The position numbers and the translations under genes were made by a program. From a virus (Duplodnaviria > Caudoviricetes): DNA of 64,000 nucleotides. Positions 2,602 to 60,812 of this stretch are shown piece by piece (the stretch's first letter is position 1; every line of letters begins with the position of its first letter). The DNA lies in the IMG/VR virus record IMGVR_UViG_3300037067_009690, positions 1 through 64,000 of that record. One strand, 5' to 3'. The notes under the pieces are model-generated. The model had not been told where the DNA came from, did not search any database, and saw nothing but the letters and a program-made list of their open reading frames with translations.

Positions 2602-3214
2602 GCGTCGTCCCCCACTGGTGCGATCCGTACACTATCCCGTCGTACCCGGGGCCGGGCCGACCGTTCATTCTCGTGGGCAGGAACGCCCCGGACGGCAGGA
2701 TCTCCACGTCATCCCGTGACGTCATGATCGGCGTGAGGATACCGGCCCCGGTTTTCACCCACGACGGGTGAACATCCGTGACGTCAACGTCGCCGAGGAG
2801 CCGCTGGTATTCGAGGATCCCCGGGTGACCTGGCGTGCACCCGAGGACAGCGTTCGTGACGCGAGCCGAGTTGTTCGGCGACCAGCACGCGAACATCCCC
2901 GACCGAAGGAAAGGAGCCCCCTCCAGTGGGGTCACGCACTCCATGTCTGAATCAACATAGACGCCACCGAACCGGGCGAGGATATCCACGCGGGCCACGT
3001 TCACGGCCCCACACCAGCGGCCGTCACGGCAGTACGCGTCCCACAGGCCCCGGTGCGCCAACCCCATGCCAGTGATTCTCTCGGCGTCCCACAGCGTGTA
3101 CTGCCACCCAGGGTGACGCGACTCCCAGCCGTCCATCCACTGCCGCGGGGCCGGTTTAGGGCCGATCCACACTTGGTGGATCACGCGGGGAATCACGTCA
3201 CCCTGGAATGCCAT
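2588..3214 (-). CDS. DXD glycosyltransferase (GT32/Gly_transf_sug-like)
   Basis: IPRVIHQVWIG, ARVDILARFGGVYVDSD, NAVLG and KTG motifs. Confidence 0.85.
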   Translation of the reverse strand: MAFQGDVIPRVIHQVWIGPKPAPRQWMDGWESRHPGWQYTLWDAERITGMGLAHRGLWDAYCRDGRWCGAVNVARVDILARFGGVYVDSDMECVTPLEGAPFLRSGMFACWSPNNSARVTNAVLGCTPGHPGILEYQRLLGDVDVTDVHPSWVKTGAGILTPIMTSRDDVEILPSGAFLPTRMNGRPGPGYDGIVYGSHQWGTTHDRY

Positions 3215-3221
3215 TGTTCTG

Positions 3222-4127
3222 TCAGCTTCCGTTCGTGATCAGAACCGCCCGGTTGGCGTCGAGGGTCTTCACGCCGTACAGGCAGTCAATGGAGCACACG
3301 TCCTGCTTCTTGTCGATGTCGTAGTCGAAGACGACCCGCAACCCGAATCCCTTATAGGATTCGACGGCGAACTTCGCGGCACCCATAGGCAGGGCCAGGG
3401 GCCTGGTCGCCAGGGCAACCGCGGTCCGGTGGAAAGCGACACTGATCTCCGGGTCGTCGTCGATGTTCTGCGTCTGATACGGGTCGAAACCGAAGACCCT
3501 CCGGCCCAGGGAAGCCTCACGCAGGCCGTCCGTGTCGCCGCGGGCGTCAGCACGCAGGAACAGGTCATCAGCGATCCACGACGCCTCAGTGTTCGGGCCG
3601 ACAATGACGAACCGGTCACCCGGGGGAACCTTCCTCTGGTTCAGGACCCGCTGGGCGTCAATGCACGTCCGGGGGTTCGTGTACGCGAAAGTGTTCGTCC
3701 CGGTGATACCGGTGGTGGTTCCGCCGGCGACACCGACCTGCTGCACGATGTCGTCCCGGAACGCGAGGATGTCGTTGTCGATCTTCTGGGCGATCGCTTC
3801 CATCGCCGGGTTCAGGAGCTGCCGCGCGAAGTCCTCGATCTTCAGCGTCAGGTCCTCGGCGGTGATAGCGAACGACACGTCCGCGAAGTGGTTCAGGACC
3901 ACAGGGACAGCCGTCTCAGTGGCGTTCTGCACGGTGATACCAGCGACCCGCACATACTCTTGCGCGGTGAAAGTCGCCGGGACACGCACGTTGACGGTCG
4001 TCCCGATCTTCGCCTGGAACTCGGAATCGAACTCCCGGTACACGCACTGCGCGGCGACGGTGGTCTCGTAGAGGGTGGCCAGCGCCTGCTTGGCGATGAC
4101 ACTCGGGTTAAGGAACGTGTTCGCCAT
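3222..4127 (-). CDS. Major capsid protein, P22 coat (gp5)-like
   Basis: MANTFLNPSVIA...KIGTTVNVRVP...DCLYGVKTLD; follows the scaffold gene. Confidence 0.9.
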   Translation of the reverse strand: MANTFLNPSVIAKQALATLYETTVAAQCVYREFDSEFQAKIGTTVNVRVPATFTAQEYVRVAGITVQNATETAVPVVLNHFADVSFAITAEDLTLKIEDFARQLLNPAMEAIAQKIDNDILAFRDDIVQQVGVAGGTTTGITGTNTFAYTNPRTCIDAQRVLNQRKVPPGDRFVIVGPNTEASWIADDLFLRADARGDTDGLREASLGRRVFGFDPYQTQNIDDDPEISVAFHRTAVALATRPLALPMGAAKFAVESYKGFGLRVVFDYDIDKKQDVCSIDCLYGVKTLDANRAVLITNGS

Positions 4128-41499: not shown

Positions 41500-41888
41500 C
41501 GGGCCCATCCGGGTAGGTCTGGTGTCGCGGGGAGGCCATGCGCGGCGGGGTCGACGGGCGTGAGGCCGCCGTCGTCGTCGAGGAGCCACCATCCGGTGCC
41601 GAGCCACGCGGGGACGTCGGCGGGCTGGCGCGGGTCACGGAGGAGGATCCACCCGAGCGAGGCGGCACCCGGCCGGTCCTGATGCGCGGCCATGTGCAGC
41701 CGGTGGCACACATGCAGGCCGTTGCTGGCGACCCACGCCCCGGAGTGACTGCGGTGGACCCGGTGCGACCAGTCCGTCGCCCGGTGCCCGCCGTGGACCT
41801 CACACACGCCACCAGACCGGGACCGGACCAGGGCACGCGCCCGCCGCTCAGCAGCCGCGACAACCGCCCGCCGGGCCACCAACGTCAC
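41496..41888 (-). CDS. HNH-like endonuclease
   Basis: RSGGVCEV...SHRVHRSHSG.W.ASNGLHVCH..H. Confidence 0.65.
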   Translation of the reverse strand: MTLVARRAVVAAAERRARALVRSRSGGVCEVHGGHRATDWSHRVHRSHSGAWVASNGLHVCHRLHMAAHQDRPGAASLGWILLRDPRQPADVPAWLGTGWWLLDDDGGLTPVDPAAHGLPATPDLPGWAR

Positions 41889-42259
41889 GGCTGGTCCCCC
41901 TGGTGGCCGCAGTGGCAGCCTTCGGCGCAGCAGGTGTCTTGGCGGTCGGTGTCGCCGTCGGTGTCGTGAAGGAAAGCTGCATGCGGGCAGCGCGGGGTGT
42001 TAGGGCATAGCCATGGAGAAGGCCACGAGGCGTCCTCCTGGTATCCGCGGGTGCGGTGGGCGGTGACGGCGTCCAGGCACGTATCCAGGGCCCCGCGGTG
42101 GTCGCCGGCGCCGCCGCTGGCTACGACCAGCGCACCGTTGCGGCACGCGTCCTGCCGGTCGGAGTCGGTGACCTCCCAGAACCACACCAGCCAGCCCGCG
42201 GCCATCTCACGCCACACGCGCCCGCGCACCGGATGCTCGGCGTTTGTTGTGTCAAGCAT
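41885..42259 (-). CDS. Hypothetical protein
   Basis: Begins just after array unit C; C-terminal Cys/His cluster; GTGA overlap. Confidence 0.5.
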   Translation of the reverse strand: MLDTTNAEHPVRGRVWREMAAGWLVWFWEVTDSDRQDACRNGALVVASGGAGDHRGALDTCLDAVTAHRTRGYQEDASWPSPWLCPNTPRCPHAAFLHDTDGDTDRQDTCCAEGCHCGHQGDQP

Positions 42260-42274
42260 CTTTTTGTCTCACGT

Positions 42275-42350
42275 CTTTCGTGTGGATCCCCTGCCCTGCC
42301 CCGCCCGGCCAAGCCATGACTAGCCGCGCAGCGCCCAGCCACGCCATGCG
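42275..42350 (-). ncRNA. GGY-NN pentamer array unit C (candidate guide RNA)
   Basis: Minus strand: cgcAT ggcGT ggcTG ggcGC tgcGC ggcTA gtcAT ggcTT ggcCG ggcGG ggcAG ggcAG then GGGATCCACACGAAAG. Confidence 0.75.
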
Positions 42351-42353
42351 ACG

Positions 42354-42929
42354 TTATTGGCCCCCGATTTCACCGGTGTTCTCGTCAACGGTTTCCCCTG
42401 CAACCGTGACACGATCAGGCACACTAATACCCTGCGACTGTAGAGCAGCGACCAGGACATCGTATTTGTCGTCGACCTGGGTGACAGTTCTCCTGAGGTC
42501 AGCGATCTGGGTTTCATGCCGGTCAAGGACGGACGCCTGAAACACTAAGGCGTCAGTGAACGCGTCGATGCTCTTGCGTTGAGCGATGGATAGTTCGTTG
42601 CGGTCGACATGCGTGGTCGTCGCTACAGCTGACCGCATGCGGCGCCGGGCGCTTTTCTGGTAACCGCGGGCCTTAACTTCATGCTCGGATGCGTGGGCGA
42701 TCTTGTATCCTACTCCGCGGACGGCTATGAGCATCCTGGATCGTTTGGTGAGGAGTTCTTGTCCGGCGCGTGCGATGGGGGTGCGTGATGCGCCTTGTTT
42801 CGCTGGGTTGTAGCCGAGGAGTTCGGTGAGGGTGTCGTAGGTGATGATGTCGCCTGGTTTAAGTTCTGCGGCGTGGTCGTATATTTCGCGCCACCTTGCG
42901 CGTGCCCCGGATGATTTAAATGGTGCCAC
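42354..42929 (-). CDS. Accessory protein between array units (wHTH-like N-terminus plus coiled coil)
   Basis: RBS GAAAGGA before the GTG; LKPGDIITYDTLTELLG; C-terminal heptad region. Confidence 0.7.
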   Translation of the reverse strand: MAPFKSSGARARWREIYDHAAELKPGDIITYDTLTELLGYNPAKQGASRTPIARAGQELLTKRSRMLIAVRGVGYKIAHASEHEVKARGYQKSARRRMRSAVATTTHVDRNELSIAQRKSIDAFTDALVFQASVLDRHETQIADLRRTVTQVDDKYDVLVAALQSQGISVPDRVTVAGETVDENTGEIGGQ

Positions 42930-42939
42930 GATGTGGTTC

Positions 42940-43032
42940 CTTTCGTGTGGATCCCCTGCCGAGCCTCGCCGTGCCATGCCATGGCGCGCCACGCCCCACC
43001 TCGCCGTGCGATGGGCCGGAGTCGAACCGGCC
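42940..43032 (-). ncRNA. GGY-NN pentamer array unit B with 5' T-arm-like hairpin (candidate guide RNA)
   Basis: Minus strand: GGCCGG-TTCGACT-CCGGCC, then cgcAC ggcGA ggtGG ggcGT ggcGC gccAT ggcAT ggcAC ggcGA ggcTC ggcAG, then GGGATCCACACGAAAG. Confidence 0.75.
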
Positions 43033-43058
43033 ATACGACCATCACCGCAACACACCCG

Positions 43059-43724
43059 TCAATCCTGATCCCAGTCTGCCGCCGAAATACCCTCGACAAC
43101 AACAGGACCCAGATCAACAACACGCGCCCAGAATCGGCCATACCCGCCGCGCCTGAAATCACCGAGCCCAACGAACCGGCCCGCCCTGTCAGCGATGTCC
43201 ACCAACTCATCGACATCAACAACAGTCTCATCGGACAGGAAATGGCACGACAACCGCCACGACCGGAATATTGGCCTTACCCTGACGTTACGCGCTTGCC
43301 CGACTTTCACGGTCTGCCGAGACACGAAGTTGCTGTCTTCACACAGGACTTCCGCAGTAGCCCCGACCGGATACCCGTCTGAGTCTTTTCTCGGCCACTT
43401 GAACCCGAGTCTACATGTGAAGTCGATGAGGGTGAGTCCCCGTTCGATTTTCATACCGGATTTCGTCATGCGCGCTCCCTCGGTGAGGGATTTCGCGACG
43501 TTCCTGCCCGGTAGGACCGGTGACCCGTTGTGGTCTACGTACAGTCCGGCCGCGTATTCCAGCCGGCCGATTTCTTCGTAGTCGCTGATAGTTTTCGTGC
43601 GTTTCCCGGATACTTTCTTGAATACCTTGGTTCGTTCGTCGAGCGGGTCGGCGAGCGTGTCGCAGTGCATGAGTAGTGGTGTCTTGCCTTTTATGTCGAC
43701 TCGTACGTTACGCAATACGCCCAT
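43059..43724 (-). CDS. Stand-alone RAMP/Cas7-like RNA-binding protein
   Basis: N-terminal strand VRVDIKGKTPLLMH, RVRPIFRSW, and C-terminal Gly-rich loop VGLGDFRRGGYGRF typical of RAMPs. Confidence 0.75.
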   Translation of the reverse strand: MGVLRNVRVDIKGKTPLLMHCDTLADPLDERTKVFKKVSGKRTKTISDYEEIGRLEYAAGLYVDHNGSPVLPGRNVAKSLTEGARMTKSGMKIERGLTLIDFTCRLGFKWPRKDSDGYPVGATAEVLCEDSNFVSRQTVKVGQARNVRVRPIFRSWRLSCHFLSDETVVDVDELVDIADRAGRFVGLGDFRRGGYGRFWARVVDLGPVVVEGISAADWDQD

Positions 43725-43729
43725 CCCGT

Positions 43730-43795
43730 CTCTCGTGTGGATCCCCTGCCCTGCCTCGCCTCGCCAAGCCATGCCTGGCCACACCCTGCCCCGCA
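43730..43795 (-). ncRNA. GGY-NN pentamer array unit A (candidate guide RNA)
   Basis: Minus strand: tgcGG ggcAG ggtGT ggcCA ggcAT ggcTT ggcGA ggcGA ggcAG ggcAG then GGGATCCACACGAGAG. Confidence 0.75.
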
Positions 43796-43800
43796 TGCAC

Positions 43801-43806
43801 ATCATA
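43801..43806 (-). promoter_or_regulatory. -10 box TATGAT upstream of unit A
   Basis: Would place the start site at about 43794, the beginning of the pentamer run; no well-spaced -35 box seen. Confidence 0.45.
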
Positions 43807-43945
43807 CGCGCGGATGCGGCTCGCCACGCGCAAGAAACGCGTGAACACCTAAATTAAGTTGCCGCCCCATGTAGCATTCTGGTCAATCAATGGCTTACCT
43901 TCGCTTATCGCGCAAACGGGTATGCCATCAGACGAAACAATCGCC

Positions 43946-44410
43946 TCACGGCGCACCGCCGAGGCAGTCGGGGCACCAGCCTGCGACACGGCCCGTCCCA
44001 GGCACCGTGACACGGACACCCGCCAGAGCCGACCTCGCCACACCCGCCCGGTCAGCGACCGCCATGGACCGGACCACACCCGCCGCGGCGCACGGCGCGA
44101 GAGCCGCATGCACCAGGTCCGTCAGCTCCCACAGGCTGTCATCGCGGTCCACGCGGTGCCGGACATGCACCGCGCCCGCTGCGGTGACCACGGCGGCGCG
44201 ATGCCGCCTGACGGCCTGCTCAGCGACAGTCACGACCTCCCGGACCAGGCCGTGGGAGTCGACGACCACACCGGCGACGCCCCCCGGGATGTCGGGCACC
44301 CACCACCAGCCCCACCCGGACACACCAAGGTCTGGGCCACGGTCCACGACCACACCGGGGCCGTGACCCGGTAGGTCCAGGACCATCCCAGGCGCCACGG
44401 CCGGCGTCAC
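43946..44410 (-). CDS. Hypothetical protein
   Basis: GTGA overlap with the XRE gene; CPDC at the end. Confidence 0.4.
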   Translation of the reverse strand: MTPAVAPGMVLDLPGHGPGVVVDRGPDLGVSGWGWWWVPDIPGGVAGVVVDSHGLVREVVTVAEQAVRRHRAAVVTAAGAVHVRHRVDRDDSLWELTDLVHAALAPCAAAGVVRSMAVADRAGVARSALAGVRVTVPGTGRVAGWCPDCLGGAP

Positions 44411-44649
44411 AGCCCGGCCCCGAGGTGCGCGTGAGCCGCCGGGCACCTGCGCCCGGATAGGGCACACACCGGGACGCCGAGGACCTCCGCCAGGTCCAGG
44501 GCCCGCAGCAGCGTTGGGTTCCTTGAGCCGGCCTCCCACGACACGACGGTGCCGGGTGCGACGTGCATCCTGGCGGCCAGCCCAGCCGTGGACATGCCGC
44601 GGGCGTGACGGGCCGCCTGGATCGCGCGTCCGACCTGCCGCGCCGACAC
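44407..44649 (-). CDS. XRE-family HTH regulator
   Basis: IQAARHARGMSTAGLAARMHVAPGTVVSWEAGSRNP...LAEVLGV. Confidence 0.85.
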   Translation of the reverse strand: MSARQVGRAIQAARHARGMSTAGLAARMHVAPGTVVSWEAGSRNPTLLRALDLAEVLGVPVCALSGRRCPAAHAHLGAGL

Positions 44650-44657
44650 CCCGGCGA

Positions 44658-45380
44658 TCACCGGGGGACACCATCCTCCGTCGCGCGCCGGGCTGGCCCG
44701 GGGCAGGGGTCGGCATGCTGCGTGGACCGGAGGCCGCCGGTGCCACACGCGGGGCACATCCCGGTCCAAGGCTGGCCGTGAGCCGACGTGCGACACAGGG
44801 TCCCGTGCGTCGCGGCGGAACCGGCCATGGCCCGGGCGACAACCTGCTCGGCGGTCTCCACAGGCACCGTGGCCCGCGCAGCCACCGCGCCCGGCGTCCC
44901 CAGCGACGACCGGCCGATCAGGTCACGGATGTCCGCGTCGGCGATGCTGCGGGACGACTCCGGGGCCGTCCCGGGGATCCGCACGGGCCAGTGCCGTCCG
45001 TCCGGGGTGGTGATCACCCAGTCGCCGGGGCACACGATGGTGCTCTCGATCCACCCGTGGTCCCGGATGACCCTCCCGCATGCGCCGCACACGTGATCCT
45101 CGTCCCGGGTGGGGTGGACTCCGGCAGTGACGGAGGGGTGGTCACCGGAGCACCACCACTGAACCGCGGTGGCCTTCCCTGGCGTGTCCACCCTCAGGAT
45201 CTCCGGTGTCCCAACACCCTCCCTGCGGCCGGTGACGATCAGGACCCTGGCACCGTCTGGACCGACCTGGGTATCCGCGAGACGACACGTCCCGGAGCAC
45301 ACGAGCACGTAATTGTCCTCGATGGTGCATGTTCCGGTCTCACCCGTGTCCTGGTCAGTGGCGGTGACAATCGTGGCCAT
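44658..45380 (-). CDS. Hypothetical protein
   Basis: HGWIE..IVCPGDWVIT motif common in phages; TGATG coupling. Confidence 0.6.
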   Translation of the reverse strand: MATIVTATDQDTGETGTCTIEDNYVLVCSGTCRLADTQVGPDGARVLIVTGRREGVGTPEILRVDTPGKATAVQWWCSGDHPSVTAGVHPTRDEDHVCGACGRVIRDHGWIESTIVCPGDWVITTPDGRHWPVRIPGTAPESSRSIADADIRDLIGRSSLGTPGAVAARATVPVETAEQVVARAMAGSAATHGTLCRTSAHGQPWTGMCPACGTGGLRSTQHADPCPGPARRATEDGVPR

Positions 45381-45976
45381 CAGTTCTCCTCAACGGTGGT
45401 GGGCGCCCGGAATATCGTGTCCCGGTACGCCTTGAGTTCAGCGATCGTGTCGAGGCAGTCCGGGATAACCCGGTGCTTCTTCTCCGGGTGCAGGCCGAAA
45501 TCCGTGCCCGGATACCAGCGTGCCGCTAATTCCCTGATAGACGACACGTCAATGATCCGATAGTGGAAGAACCCCTCAAGCTCCGGCATTCGCGCGTTGA
45601 GCCACGTCCTGTCGAACCGCACCGATGACCCGGTCAACGGCATTGTCCCTGGTGCGACACCCCACTCCCGGAGCCAGTCCAGCGCGGACCCCACTATGTC
45701 GATGCGGTCCGTGTCACCTCCCCCGGCGCAGTCGTCCCACAGCCCGGAGACGTCGTGCATGTCCCGGACACGATCGGAGCAGCACTCCCGGATCCATTCG
45801 AGCTGGCCATGGGGGTGGCCGAGGACCGCGGACCATGCACTGATCGGGGCCAGGTCCTGGCCGACGAGGACCATCCCGACCTCCAGGATCAGCCCGCCGT
45901 TGTGCAGGCCACCGGGGGCCGCGTCAGGCAGGCCGGTGGTCTCGATGTCGATGACGATCTGCCGGGTGTCGGTCAC
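45380..45976 (-). CDS. orn: Oligoribonuclease-like DEDDh exonuclease
   Basis: IDIETTGL, ILEVG, MHDVSGL, GSSVRFDR..L...MPEL..FFHYRIIDVSSIRELA.RW, HRVIPD. Confidence 0.9.
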   Translation of the reverse strand: MTDTRQIVIDIETTGLPDAAPGGLHNGGLILEVGMVLVGQDLAPISAWSAVLGHPHGQLEWIRECCSDRVRDMHDVSGLWDDCAGGGDTDRIDIVGSALDWLREWGVAPGTMPLTGSSVRFDRTWLNARMPELEGFFHYRIIDVSSIRELAARWYPGTDFGLHPEKKHRVIPDCLDTIAELKAYRDTIFRAPTTVEEN

Positions 45977-46623
45977 CGGTGCGCCTCCCTGGCCTGCATG
46001 TGCGCGTCGTTCTTCGCGGCGTCGAGGGCATCCTGTGCCCGCCTGGCTGTGGCTGCGGTCTGGGTGTGTACCCCGCCCATCAGGTCCCCGACGCCGGGGC
46101 ATCGGGCGAGGGCGACGCCGACGCAGTGCAGGGCAGCGATGAGATCCTCAGCGACATCACCGGGGTGCTTGATGTCCTCGCGTTCGATGCGCGTCGACAG
46201 CCAGTCGGCGAGCATGCGGATGACGTGCGCGTCGCCTTCGGCAGTGCCCTGCTTGAGCTGGTTGTAGACGCTGATTCTGTGCCAGTCGTCGCGGTTCTCC
46301 GGGACCATGGGGATCGCCGGGAACGTCACTCGCGGGGGCGCGTCGACCTCGCTGACGCCGTCGCTGGTCCATGGGTGCGCGACCGACACGGGGATGGTGG
46401 CGACCTTCACGCCCCACGGGTCGGTGGGCCGGACCGCGTCGTCGCCGAGGTTCGCGACCAGGTCCACGGCGAAGCACGGCCCGTAGGCGCCGGTCTCTGG
46501 GTTGCGGCGGCACGTGGGGATGCCGGTGCCGGGTTGTGGCTCGTCGGGGTGCCGGCACGTCAGGGCGTAATCCGCGGCACCAACGCTGTTGATGGTCACG
46601 GTCAGGGTGTGGTCGGCGATCAT
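45973..46623 (-). CDS. Hypothetical protein
   Basis: ATGA and GTGA overlaps. Confidence 0.5.
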   Translation of the reverse strand: MIADHTLTVTINSVGAADYALTCRHPDEPQPGTGIPTCRRNPETGAYGPCFAVDLVANLGDDAVRPTDPWGVKVATIPVSVAHPWTSDGVSEVDAPPRVTFPAIPMVPENRDDWHRISVYNQLKQGTAEGDAHVIRMLADWLSTRIEREDIKHPGDVAEDLIAALHCVGVALARCPGVGDLMGGVHTQTAATARRAQDALDAAKNDAHMQAREAHR

Positions 46624-48195: not shown

Positions 48196-49092
48196 TCAGA
48201 TGAAGTCGACGATTGTTCTGGCGCCGCGGGAGTCGAGTAGCGCCTGGCCGTTGCGGCCCCAGTCTTCCCATTTGGCGTTGCGGGATGCGATTTCCTGGTC
48301 CCGGCGGGATTGGCGGGGTCTGGTGTGGTCATCGTGGGATGTCTTAGCCCAGTTCTTCCATACGAGGTCCCACCTGGTTTTCCGTCCGTCTTTCCCTGGC
48401 TTGGACACCCAGTAGTTGCGGAACTTTTCCACTTCGGCCCATCCGACTGTGGGGCAGTTCTGTCGGGTCCAGGCTTGGAGGGCGGCGTCTGGCTCCCAGT
48501 CTTCGGGGAGTCGGGTGCCCCGGTCTGATCGGGGCTTCGGGGGTGGGTCGTTGAGTGGGAGCGGCTGTTGTGCGGTGGGGGTGGGAGCTGGCGCAGCCTG
48601 CGACGCTTCTCTCTCTTGTACTGGCTCTTGTACTGGCTCTTGTGTTTTCTGCCGCATGGGTGCGGGTACCCCCTCCGCACGGGTGCGGCTACCCCTCCGC
48701 GCGGGTGCGGCTACCCCTGTACCTGCATCGGCGCGGATGTCCGCACGGGTGCGGCTACCTCTATCGGGCACACCGCGTTCAACGTCATGTATGGTGTATA
48801 TACTCGCTTTCAGGACGTTGCCAGTACCGTGCTGTTGCTCGACAGTAAGCACCCCGGCCATTACGAGTTCCTTCGCTGCCCGGTCGACAGTGTCTGTTGA
48901 ACGTCCCATTAATTCAGCGAGTTCTGACCGGTAGAGCTGGTAGCTACGTGTTGCTAGGTCAGCGAATGTCGCGATGATCGCGTAAAGCGTTTTCGCGTTA
49001 GGTGAAAGCGTCTGGTCGCGGATTATTTCAGTCGATAGCTGAACGAAAGGAAGGGCTCGCGCCCGTGCGACTCTAATCTCAGTGTCAGCCAT
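48196..49092 (-). CDS. Replication initiator (HTH_36-like)
   Basis: LSPNAKTLYAIIA...RSELAELMGRSTDTVDRAAKELVMAG; internal iterons; RGTRLPEDW.P...EKFRNYW...RWDLVWKNW C-terminal domain. Confidence 0.8.
   Translation of the reverse strand: MADTEIRVARARALPFVQLSTEIIRDQTLSPNAKTLYAIIATFADLATRSYQLYRSELAELMGRSTDTVDRAAKELVMAGVLTVEQQHGTGNVLKASIYTIHDVERGVPDRGSRTRADIRADAGTGVAAPARRGSRTRAEGVPAPMRQKTQEPVQEPVQEREASQAAPAPTPTAQQPLPLNDPPPKPRSDRGTRLPEDWEPDAALQAWTRQNCPTVGWAEVEKFRNYWVSKPGKDGRKTRWDLVWKNWAKTSHDDHTRPRQSRRDQEIASRNAKWEDWGRNGQALLDSRGARTIVDFI
48652..48762. repeat. Iteron-like repeats, putative replication origin
   Basis: Four copies of about 22 bp CCGCACGGGTGCGGCTACCCCT starting at 48652, 48675, 48697 and 48741. 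Confidence 0.75.
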
Positions 49093-60494: not shown

Positions 60495-60812
60495 TCAGGC
60501 CAGGTGCTTGAGGCACGGCATGACCCGGGCGTCGTGGCGGAAGCAGTACTCGACCTCGGCGGCCCACTCGGGGGTGCCTGGGCCGGCGTTGTCCGTGGCG
60601 ATGTCACCCCAGATGTCCTCGGCGAGTTTGCGGAGGGTGTCCATGTCGGCGGGGTGGGTCTCCACCTCCCAGGCCTTGGCCCCCTTCAGGTCACGGCATC
60701 CGGGGGAGTGGAACTCGGTGGTCCCATTGCCGGGGGTGCGGGTGGTGGCCTGGGTGGCCAGCGGCCGGTCCAGGTCGGGTGCGGTGCGGCTGATGGCTGC
60801 GGTTGCTGGCAT
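60495..60812 (-). CDS. Hypothetical protein, leaderless
   Basis: FHSPGCRDL...CLKH; TTGACT-N17-CACACT upstream. Confidence 0.6.
   Translation of the reverse strand: MPATAAISRTAPDLDRPLATQATTRTPGNGTTEFHSPGCRDLKGAKAWEVETHPADMDTLRKLAEDIWGDIATDNAGPGTPEWAAEVEYCFRHDARVMPCLKHLA

Follow-up and report, generated by a model that had tools for sequence, protein, structure and literature searches.

What is a lone RAMP/Cas7-like gene doing in a phage genome, interleaved with three arrays of phased GGY-NN pentamers? We address this question for one window, a 64,000-nt stretch of viral DNA (positions 1 to 64,000 of IMG/VR record IMGVR_UViG_3300037067_009690), in which an earlier note had proposed an RNA-guided system and had pointed to a likeness with VIPR. 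That likeness is confirmed: the Vipr protein, the arrays, their tail and a Vap1-like gene all match, and from its sequence the locus most resembles type II (SUSP1-like) VIPR, with Vipr paired with a Vap1-like partner. The novelty that the note implied does not stand, since VIPR (Viral Interference Programmable Repeat), a form of RNA-guided DNA silencing, has already been published in preprints (10.64898/2026.04.26.720920, 10.64898/2026.04.26.720927, 10.64898/2026.10.15.759431). An additional feature here is a tRNA-like element, which probably assists in releasing a guide RNA.

Layout of the Locus and Its Carrier

Read along the minus strand, the hexamer TATGAT is followed by unit A, vipr, the minihelix, unit B, vap, unit C and a 124-aa ORF:

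43801-43806, minus strand: -10-like hexamer TATGAT, separated by 5 nt from the partial unit that opens guide A
43730-43795, minus strand: vrRNA-A; partial unit TGCGG, nine GGYNN repeats (43746-43790) and a 16-nt tail, GGGATCCACACGAGAG (43730-43745)
43059-43724, minus strand: vipr, encoding the 221-aa Vipr protein, a single-RRM RAMP
43007-43048, minus strand: tRNA-like minihelix, 42 nt
42940-43005, minus strand: vrRNA-B; ten GGYNN repeats (42956-43005) and the tail GGGATCCACACGAAAG (42940-42955)
42354-42929, minus strand: vap, encoding a 191-aa Vap1-like accessory protein, with a GTG start
42275-42345, minus strand: vrRNA-C; eleven GGYNN repeats (42291-42345) and the tail GGGATCCACACGAAAG (42275-42290)
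41885-42259, minus strand: 124-aa ORF, directly after guide C

Every minus-strand element that the earlier note had listed is present where it had been placed. One correction applies: the pentamers do occupy the intergenic gaps, but the gap before unit B also contains the 42-nt minihelix (43007-43048). The -10 box of the note exists as the sequence TATGAT at 43801-43806, read directly from the DNA, but a promoter is unsupported by a consensus scan, which gave no full sigma-70 site in 41800-44500; because of this, the possibility that TATGAT is a promoter setting the 5′ end of guide A stays a guess. The locus is indeed more AT-rich than its surroundings, with a GC content of 0.57-0.61 over 42250-43999 compared with 0.68-0.76 in the flanks.

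The record is a phage of about 84 kb recovered from a metagenome. Its capsid gene is about 70% identical to Hiyaavirus capsid genes and, judged by sequence, the carrier is a tailed phage akin to the Streptomyces Hiyaavirus phages; no cultured Hiyaavirus-like member appears among the Vipr matches. A blastn comparison of the locus with 50,697 phage records gave no match, and relatives surface only in protein-level searches. The identical gene order recurs on a second contig (run SRR18595300). As had been claimed, cas1, cas6 and a CRISPR array are missing: throughout the 84-kb record there is no match to the Cas1 or Cas6 families and no CRISPR-like repeat-spacer array.

Three Phased Guide Arrays with a Common Tail

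The description of three strictly phased GGY-NN units with a common ending was accurate; they have 9, 10 and 11 repeats, plus the partial 5′ unit in A. A scan for phased GGY (at least 7 of 9) returned three arrays on the minus strand, none on the plus strand and none in 60 dinucleotide-preserving shuffles, and these three are the sole such arrays in the 84-kb phage. A fourth pseudo-array (60753-60792, plus strand) emerges only at a relaxed threshold; we judge it to be due to chance because long ORFs enclose it, its phasing is unclean and it lacks a tail. Across the 30 repeats, positions 1-3 are nearly invariant (entropy 0.21-0.42 bits) and positions 4-5 are highly variable (1.75-1.94 bits); three of the repeats (GCCAT, TGCGC and GTCAT) are degenerate. 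The variable dinucleotides read AG GT CA AT TT GA GA AG AG in vrRNA-A, GA GG GT GC AT AT AC GA TC AG in vrRNA-B, and GT TG GC GC TA AT TT CG GG AG AG in vrRNA-C.

All three units end in GGCAG followed by GGGATCCACACGA(G/A)AG. The tails are identical over 18 nt, and the conserved part spans about 16-21 nt. Within it, the 14-mer GGGGATCCACACGA has exactly three copies, all of them on the minus strand; when up to two mismatches are allowed, it has 7 matches against 1.39 expected, a number reached in none of 100 shuffles. Minimum-free-energy folds of the three units, by a method that is not pseudoknot-aware, gave no common tail structure or consistent fold. A search with the tail GGCAGGGGATCCACACGA(RAG) found no match in IMG/VR or the JGI metagenomes, and hence no close relatives or solo guides by that route.

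The arrays are packed tightly against the genes. The vipr start codon lies 5 nt past the vrRNA-A tail, the GTG start of vap lies 10 nt past the vrRNA-B tail, and vrRNA-C begins 8 nt downstream of the vap stop codon. Each tail overlaps the ribosome-binding region of the gene behind it (vipr, vap or the third ORF); therefore, filament assembly or guide maturation could feed back on the translation of the system's own proteins.

The earlier note had also called for a check of whether homologues are flanked by pentamer arrays. They are: in 66 of 80 IMG/VR loci that encode Vipr relatives, arrays lie on the strand of vipr, and in 2 they lie on the opposite strand. The query for this search was an alignment of 12 sequences.

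A Full-Length Homologue of SUSP1 Vipr and Its Partner

The protein that had been described as a lone RAMP/Cas7-like gene product proved to be a full-length homologue of SUSP1 Vipr with a fold of the Cas7/Csm3 type. It matches the solved SUSP1 structure (PDB 36pp_D) over nearly its full length, with an E value of 1.9e-27, and is 32% identical to a Felixounavirus Vipr (BLASTP, E 2e-35). In SUSP1, residues H17, R138, D177, W178, R179 and K33 hold G1, G2, Y3 and the target backbone (10.64898/2026.04.26.720927). Five of these are identical here, with H17, K33, R138, D177 and R179 corresponding to H20, K36, R150, D189 and R191, and W178 is replaced by another aromatic residue, F190; E71/M72 of SUSP1 are not conserved. 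The motifs that the note had taken for the first strand and glycine-rich loop of a RAMP contain H20, the conserved first-strand histidine, together with the G-loop residues D189-F190-R191. Its further proposal, that one protomer sits on each pentamer and displays NN, agrees with the arrangement seen by cryo-EM for SUSP1 Vipr (10.64898/2026.04.26.720927) and, by analogy, would apply here. Pfam gave no match for Vipr, for Vap or for either of the two small ORFs that flank them, and a single-sequence AlphaFold2 model of Vipr was uninformative (pLDDT 33.5).

Vap is winged-helix-like in its N-terminal part and a coiled coil in its C-terminal part; it has a weak match to the OmpR winged helix (E 0.11). 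It is 62% identical to P0060, 51% identical to the gene after the vrRNA array in L008, and 24% identical (E 4e-9) to gp77 of MakoManhole, annotated as a 'DNA binding protein'. Its profile also aligns with that of the gene in the vap1 position of Felixounavirus (hhalign 94.8%, E 5e-8). The gene adjoins vipr in L008, L089, MakoManhole, LittleE and prophiBWHA-1. The 124-aa ORF, which keeps its place in the gene order of the second contig, is probably cotranscribed with guide C and can be considered a candidate member of the system only. It has no Pfam or PHROG match, and the Atlas offers no function for either Vap or this ORF.

A tRNA-like Minihelix Precedes Guide B

The minihelix sits directly 5′ of guide B, between that guide and the vipr coding region. 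It comprises an acceptor-like stem (GCGGTG/CATCGC), a 10-nt linker (10-11 nt) with a conserved GG, and a T-arm with a 6-bp stem (GGCCGG/CCGGCC) and the loop TTCGACT. A discriminator-like A lies at 43007, and the first GGC of guide B begins 2 nt further on. Folded alone, the element has a free energy of -19.5 kcal/mol. This copy could also pair in a 7-bp acceptor register, GTGATGG/CCATCGC; the register of the family is GCGGTG/CATCGC with the 6-bp T-stem.

The element belongs to a family. A covariance model (R1) scores this copy, the sole one in the window, at 55.3 bits (E 6e-10), and has 58 matches in related loci, all on the vipr strand; about 27 related loci besides this one contain it. Covariation across 31 copies is 0.649, compared with 0.175 in shuffles, and none of 500 shuffles was as high. 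The closing helix has at least 5 bp in 53 of 57 copies and in 12% of controls, and a combined stack of 11-12 bp is present in 51 of the 57. The 7-nt TTCGAnT loop and the linker GG are also family features. Most copies lie just after an array (46/57) or just before one (38/57); in this window and 7 other cases an array is found downstream only, with none upstream.

This is not a full tRNA gene, as there is no cloverleaf with an anticodon arm but only the acceptor-like stem, linker and T-arm. ARAGORN did not call it and found no tRNA in the window, and Rfam gave no match at E values up to 1 in 41800-44200. The 11-12-bp stack, 7-nt TTCGAnT loop and linker GG fit what RNase P and RNase Z recognize in their substrates, and the linker GG may imitate a D-loop. 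There are precedents for such a module: in engineered polycistronic tRNA-guide RNA arrays, a tRNA-shaped unit recruits RNase P and RNase Z and frees the guide RNA, and mascRNA is a natural tRNA-like processing signal.

Search for Targets

The targets predicted by a 1-nt-skip code are GAnGGnGTnGCnATnATnACnGAnTCnAG for guide B and GTnTGnGCnGCnTAnATnTTnCGnGGnAGnAG for guide C. The guides have no self-targets above shuffle level in their own genome. In IMG/VR, exact 1-nt-skip patterns of guides A (9 NN), B (10 NN) and C (11 NN) found no target, nor did 3′- and 5′-anchored 9-NN subpatterns of guides B and C. Guide C found none in the JGI metagenomes, none at up to three mismatches in four Vipr-bearing actinobacterial genomes, and no match at up to two mismatches in 401 Streptomycetaceae genomes. 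Finally, five related phages (Keanu, Galactica, Hiyaa, Cafasso and MakoManhole) contain no target for guides B and C at up to three mismatches or for guide A at up to two. These scans mostly required exact matches, with a pattern orientation that had no positive control, and the published criterion is 80% NN identity; targets at 80%-90% NN identity would therefore be missed.

Proposed Mechanism and Alternatives

Taking the steps from the SUSP1 homologue, we infer how this locus would be transcribed, bind RNA, process it and silence, and what kind of target it would have. Transcription of the minus strand would run through all three guide units and through the genes that alternate with them (vipr, vap and the third ORF). 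Each guide (vrRNA), with its 9-11 GGYNN repeats, would be bound by one Vipr protomer per repeat, whose residues H20, R150, D189, F190 and R191 would sequester GGY and leave the NN dinucleotides presented. The filament would then bind double-stranded DNA, reading it as NN-x-NN-x, and block transcription there, with Vap probably assisting at the DNA. The likeliest targets would be competing elements that share the host, whether phage, prophage or satellite. As to the guide ends, guide A would begin at or near a promoter, and the 5′ end of guide B would be freed by host RNase Z or RNase P at the minihelix. That the locus is a VIPR system acting by such a SUSP1-like guide filament, with guide ends as proposed, is in our view very probable.

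Other explanations have to be set against this one. We find it scarcely credible that the pentamer arrays work at the DNA level, for example as iterons or binding sites recognized by Vap or some different protein, instead of as guide RNAs. Vap does resemble a DNA-binding protein and a period of 5 bp corresponds to half a turn of the helix, but the arrays are co-oriented with vipr (66 loci against 2), an orientation that symmetric DNA sites do not need, and the GGY-contacting residues are conserved. Moreover, the homologous SUSP1 units are transcribed and copurify with Vipr, and by that homology the units here would be transcribed and protein bound as well. An inactive remnant of VIPR might be suspected from the low-GC island, which suggests recent acquisition, and from the absence of targets in our searches; nevertheless, the vipr and vap ORFs are intact with their functional residues conserved, the three tails have kept their 18-nt identity, and the second contig has the same gene order, all of which makes decay very improbable. 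A functional system could also be aimed at the host chromosome, for takeover or decoy binding, instead of at a competing mobile element. This would fit the lack of a target in any viral collection searched, and vrRNAs do direct VIPR to host REP elements (10.64898/2026.10.15.759431). However, satellites and prophages make up most of the natural targets published for type II, and the 401 Streptomycetaceae genomes held no match at up to two mismatches to guide C, the one guide compared with them; we consider a host-directed role improbable.

The minihelix, too, can be read in another way: as a structural 3′ guide cap equivalent to the SUSP1 pseudoknot or, at this locus, as a 3′ stabilizer or terminator of the vipr message, and not as a cleavage signal. 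In relatives, the 46 of 57 copies directly after an array lie where the tail would sit, and SUSP1 tails are structured caps. Such a role is harder to reconcile with the array lying solely downstream in this window and the 7 other cases, with the complete tails that three guides here possess without a minihelix, and with the stack, loop and linker GG, which fit recognition by enzymes of tRNA processing; we think it rather unlikely. The reading we tentatively put forward, as a possibility still open to doubt, is that a reduced tRNA mimic punctuates the VIPR loci of actinobacterial phages, that host RNase P and RNase Z excise the guides, and that the tails could feed back. If so, the transcript from which guides are excised would also encode vipr and vap.

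Implications and Comparison with Known Systems

This locus leaves the understanding of VIPR action unchanged. It widens the range of VIPR to a Streptomyces-type (Hiyaavirus-like) phage lineage, and it has a compact layout, with every guide RNA serving as a gene leader. In addition, vipr, vap and guide arrays can be recognized behind gene products annotated as hypothetical, and behind some overlapping gene calls, in the records of Gordonia and Mycobacterium phages. The recurring minihelix provides a testable hypothesis of guide excision in actinobacterial phages, a matter on which the VIPR preprint texts are silent: the word tRNA is absent from all three (10.64898/2026.04.26.720920,.720927, 10.64898/2026.10.15.759431).

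The closest known system is type II VIPR of Escherichia phage SUSP1 and of the Pseudomonas fulva prophage (10.64898/2026.04.26.720920,.720927). It shares with the present locus full-length Vipr homology with the GGY-binding residues kept, a Vap1-like gene adjoining vipr, and guides of 9-16 GGYNN repeats whose NN varies, ending in a conserved 3′ tail that starts with GGG; both are phage-borne, lack cas genes or a CRISPR array, and have no self-targets. The carrier here differs in being an actinobacterial phage of high GC content, each of three genes has a guide in front of it, and there is a tRNA-like minihelix. Whereas the SUSP1 tail is a pseudoknot of 40-60 nt, the tail here has 16-21 nt, shows no evident pseudoknot and overlaps the ribosome-binding region of the next gene. 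The Vipr protein differs in having F for W178, a 10-residue insertion and a C-terminal extension. The repeats are mostly of the GGC form (28/30), in contrast to a coliphage relative that has mostly GGT, and the placement of a guide before each of three genes differs from the separate upstream and downstream arrays of the Felixounavirus relative.

Compared with the Cas7 backbone of class 1 CRISPR effectors, the period here is 5 nt, not 6, and the guide is read noncontiguously; a CRISPR array, adaptation genes and other Cas subunits are lacking, and sequence identity of Vipr to Csm3, Cmr4 and Cas7-11 is only 10%-15%. Type I and type V VIPR have vrRNA arrays interspersed with hammerhead ribozymes, according to the legend of fig. 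S19 (10.64898/2026.04.26.720920 /.720927). As far as that legend describes them, they resemble the present family in placing a structured RNA between guides, presumed to define guide ends, but those hammerheads are self-cleaving, whereas the minihelix would depend on host enzymes. If the excision reading is true, the minihelix would do in nature what tRNA-guide arrays have been engineered to do. Set beside these and mascRNA, it is natural and phage-encoded, retains no more than acceptor stem, T-arm and a short linker, and has a cleavage that is predicted.

The Locus Is a VIPR System

An earlier note had proposed that this phage carries an RNA-guided system in which a Cas7-like gene is interleaved with three arrays of GGY-NN pentamers, and the claimed elements and their layout are present in every particular when the sequence is read. 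[quoted passage not shown] The possible novelty of the system is not, because VIPR was described in 2026 (bioRxiv 10.64898/2026.04.26.720920, 10.64898/2026.04.26.720927, 10.64898/2026.10.15.759431) and recovered independently (10.64898/2026.10.21.760802). As these preprints define it, a VIPR system is built around Vipr, a minimal RAMP with a single RRM, and in most cases has one accessory gene, vap. It lacks cas genes and a CRISPR array, and its guide RNAs (vrRNAs) consist of 9-16 YNNGG repeats with an invariable tail at the 3' end. One Vipr protomer binds each repeat and sequesters GGY, the vrRNA NN bases pair with DNA reading NN-x (a 1-nt-skip rule), and transcription of competing phages, prophages and satellites is thereby silenced (VIPR preprints). 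Every sequence-level feature of this definition is found here, and the locus is a VIPR system, most like type II, whose expression, processing, function and targets we infer. The earlier note saw no cas1, cas6 or CRISPR array in the window, and the whole 84,249-bp record yielded neither a repeat-spacer array nor a match to the Cas1 or Cas6 families.

Features of the locus, in minus-strand order
43801-43806, minus: TATGAT hexamer, read from sequence
43730-43795, minus: unit A, 9 GGYNN repeats, read from sequence, preceding vipr
43059-43724, minus: vipr ORF, 221 aa
43007-43048, minus: tRNA-like structured element, 42 nt, in the gap from vipr to guide B
42940-43005, minus: unit B, 10 GGYNN repeats, read from sequence, preceding vap
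42354-42929, minus: vap ORF, 191 aa, GTG start
42275-42345, minus: unit C, 11 GGYNN repeats, read from sequence, preceding the 124-aa ORF
41885-42259, minus: 124-aa ORF, last in the locus

The pentamers are strictly phased in all three units, each of which is closed by GGCAG and then GGGATCCACACGA(G/A)AG. Exactly three copies of the 14-mer GGGGATCCACACGA are present, whether one counts the window or the full record, and all are on the minus strand. A scan of the window for phased GGY (at least 7 of 9) found three minus-strand arrays and no plus-strand ones, and none appeared in 60 dinucleotide-preserving shuffles. Over the 30 repeats, entropy is 0.21-0.42 bits at positions 1-3 versus 1.75-1.94 bits at positions 4-5. 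The units do lie in the intergenic gaps that they were said to fill, but the gap before unit B also holds the tRNA-like element. A G-rich stretch considered as a further array (60753-60792, plus strand) passes a relaxed scan (6 of 8); it is probably chance, because it sits within long ORFs, lacks clean phasing and is not followed by a tail.

The locus had also been called AT-rich, and the cassette (42250-43999) is indeed a low-GC island (0.57-0.61 versus 0.68-0.76 in the flanks). This low GC content relative to the flanks suggests acquisition as a mobile module.

Upstream on the same strand, in a stretch of GC 0.75-0.76, lies an XRE-type HTH_3 regulator gene (44407-44796, minus; E 3.9e-10) that may control the VIPR operon. 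Two genes farther upstream, an ORF of 240 aa (45380-46102, minus) contains an exonuclease domain of the RNase_T type (E 1.3e-5). At 48652-48718 a 22-nt unit, CCGCACGGGTGCGGCTACCCCT, is present in three tandem copies (91% matches), each with a short inverted repeat; it could be an operator or iteron.

Vipr and Its Accessory Protein

The 221-aa protein has no Pfam match and falls in phrog_4652, a family without an assigned function (E 1.9e-44). Searched by sequence against the Protein Data Bank, it gave one clear match, 36pp_D, 'SUSP1 Vipr protein' (E 1.9e-27; residues 7-207 against 4-194 of 202), and identity to the Vipr of Felixounavirus VpaE1 is 32% (E 2e-35). Cas7-family RAMPs were the only fold class recovered by Foldseek and VIA-align for an AlphaFold2 model built from 57 aligned homologs (pLDDT 95.5). 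The RAMP/Cas7 assignment is thus upheld by both sequence and predicted structure.

In SUSP1 Vipr, the GGY bases and the backbone of the target are held in place by H17, R138, D177, W178, R179 and K33 (10.64898/2026.04.26.720927). The 36pp_D alignment places H20, R150, D189, F190, R191 and K36 at these positions, identical except for the W-to-F change and mostly invariant in close relatives. The idea that one protomer would occupy each pentamer, gripping GGY and displaying NN, matches the published mechanism, and the retention of the contact residues is consistent with it. We judge the 221-aa reading of vipr to be right, and the 203-aa database form (P0001) to start 18 codons too late (43671-43724, minus), because SUSP1 Vipr homology begins at residue 7; the 221-aa call is also present on a second contig.

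Few relatives of the 191-aa protein are detectable, and its gene is conserved directly beside vipr. Identity is 51% in the closest IMG/VR locus (L008), 62% in the MAG contig GCA_033813855.1 (L089) and 24% to Gordonia phage MakoManhole gp77, annotated 'DNA binding protein' (E 4e-9); the counterpart genes of mycobacteriophage LittleE and prophage prophiBWHA-1 are also alignable. A profile of six Vap sequences matched the gene after vipr in SUSP1-family Felixounavirus (hhalign 94.8%, E 5e-8, 99 columns) and, weakly, OmpR-type winged-helix domains (E 0.11), and the C-terminal part has a coiled-coil look. We read it as a predicted Vap1-like DNA-binding accessory protein.

Phage, Host and Related Loci

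The IMG/VR record is a phage, 91% complete, whose major capsid gene has about 70% DNA identity to Streptomyces phages Keanu, Galactica and Hiyaa (genus Hiyaavirus). Vipr tblastn matched 130 phage records, most of them Felixounavirus-like coliphages; other bearers include Gordonia phages MakoManhole and Trine, Mycobacterium LittleE and prophiBWHA-1, and Pseudomonas Medea1, and no Streptomyces phage is named among the matched organisms. Because the nearest cellular vipr copies are in Nocardioides, Mycobacterium and Streptomyces assemblies, we take the host to be an actinobacterium. A check that the earlier note had advised, for arrays beside homologs, came out as expected: GGYNN arrays lie on the vipr strand in 66 of 80 IMG/VR loci encoding relatives and on the opposite strand in only 2.

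In Trine (MH271318.1), a GGYNN array of 12 repeats (3131-3190) and three tRNA-like elements (3079-3126, 3200-3247, 3309-3356) overlap the CDS annotated as gp40 (3088-3891), the 5' part of which is probably guide RNA and not protein-coding. In LittleE (NC_042322.1, 2178-3959) a VIPR cassette separates the tape measure gene from the tail genes and runs on the strand opposite to theirs; it carries vipr (gp34), a vap-like gene (gp33) and four guide arrays accompanied by tRNA-like elements. In prophiBWHA-1, a Mycobacterium abscessus prophage (OQ417975.1, 2373-3648), vipr (gp43), vap-like gp42 and a tRNA-like element lie a few genes from the immunity repressor. The L089 guides (3190-3260, 3910-3985) are degenerate, many units reading xGCNN (for example GCAAC GCGAC GCTGT), which may be a non-canonical variant of the repeat.

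Guides and Target Search

NN strings of the three guides
Guide A: AG GT CA AT TT GA GA AG AG
Guide B: GA GG GT GC AT AT AC GA TC AG
Guide C: GT TG GC GC TA AT TT CG GG AG AG

Within the phage's own genome no self-target exceeded shuffle level under any skip rule, bar trivial 3-nt-skip self-hits at the arrays, in agreement with the absence of self-targeting from published systems (VIPR paper). No target was found in IMG/VR with exact full-length and 9-NN guide patterns, or in five related phages with all three guides. Guide C gave none in JGI metagenomes, in 401 Streptomycetaceae genomes (up to 2 mismatches) or in four Vipr-bearing genomes (up to 3 mismatches). These negatives say little: a search at 80% NN identity, the criterion used in the published work, would be far more sensitive than these scans.

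A tRNA-like Element beside the Guides

The RNA of 43007-43048 can fold into an acceptor-like stem of 6 bp (GCGGTG/CATCGC, including one G-U pair), a linker of 10 nt and a second 6-bp stem (GGCCGG/CCGGCC) capped by the loop TTCGACT; the element ends in an unpaired A, and the first GGC of guide B begins 2 nt later. Similar elements flank guides in MakoManhole, Trine, LittleE and L008. Across 31 aligned copies every cell of the T-stem is paired (100%), compensatory changes affect 4 of its 6 pairs, and the covariation score is 0.649 versus 0.175 in shuffles (0 of 500 as high), dropping when partners are slid. A covariance model (E up to 0.01; 520 kb, window plus loci) found 58 copies, all on the vipr strand and one in the window, with no match in a coliphage locus.

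Among 57 copies, an array lies just before the element in 46, just after it in 38 and on both sides in 30; it is solely downstream in 8, including the window's copy. The closing helix is at least 5 bp in 53 of 57, versus 12% of controls with shuffled flanks. The combined stack is 11-12 bp in 51 of 57, the length of the tRNA acceptor/T-arm stack, and the linker, with a nearly invariant GG, is 10-11 nt in 51 of 57. Neither ARAGORN nor Rfam gave a call for the element.

By analogy with the substrates of RNase P and RNase Z, we infer that the elements would act as punctuation recognised by host tRNA-processing enzymes; the main alternative is that they are a purely structural 3' cap. Such tRNA-like punctuation, common to many actinobacterial-phage VIPR loci, is worth following. 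The word 'tRNA' is absent from the text of 10.64898/2026.04.26.720920, 10.64898/2026.04.26.720927 and 10.64898/2026.10.15.759431, as is 'tRNA-like' from that of 10.64898/2026.10.21.760802, although figures or supplements of these four could still show the element.

Comparison with Known VIPR Systems

Compared with SUSP1, the guides here are interleaved, one before each of vipr, vap and the 124-aa ORF, unlike a Felixounavirus relative with three arrays upstream and two downstream; the order vrRNA-vipr-vrRNA-vap also occurs in L089. The conserved tail, again in contrast to SUSP1, is just 16-21 nt with no common fold. Because it ends 5-15 nt ahead of the next start codon, its purine-rich end (GAGAG, GAAAGG) extends into what is likely the ribosome-binding region, and guide maturation or filament assembly could therefore, speculatively, influence translation of the downstream gene. 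This guide-as-leader layout also merits following. Two further differences from SUSP1 are that 28 of the 30 repeats in units A-C carry GGC and that a tRNA-like element separates the end of vipr from guide B. The role proposed for such elements would parallel that of hammerhead ribozymes, which the VIPR paper reports between guides in types I and V.
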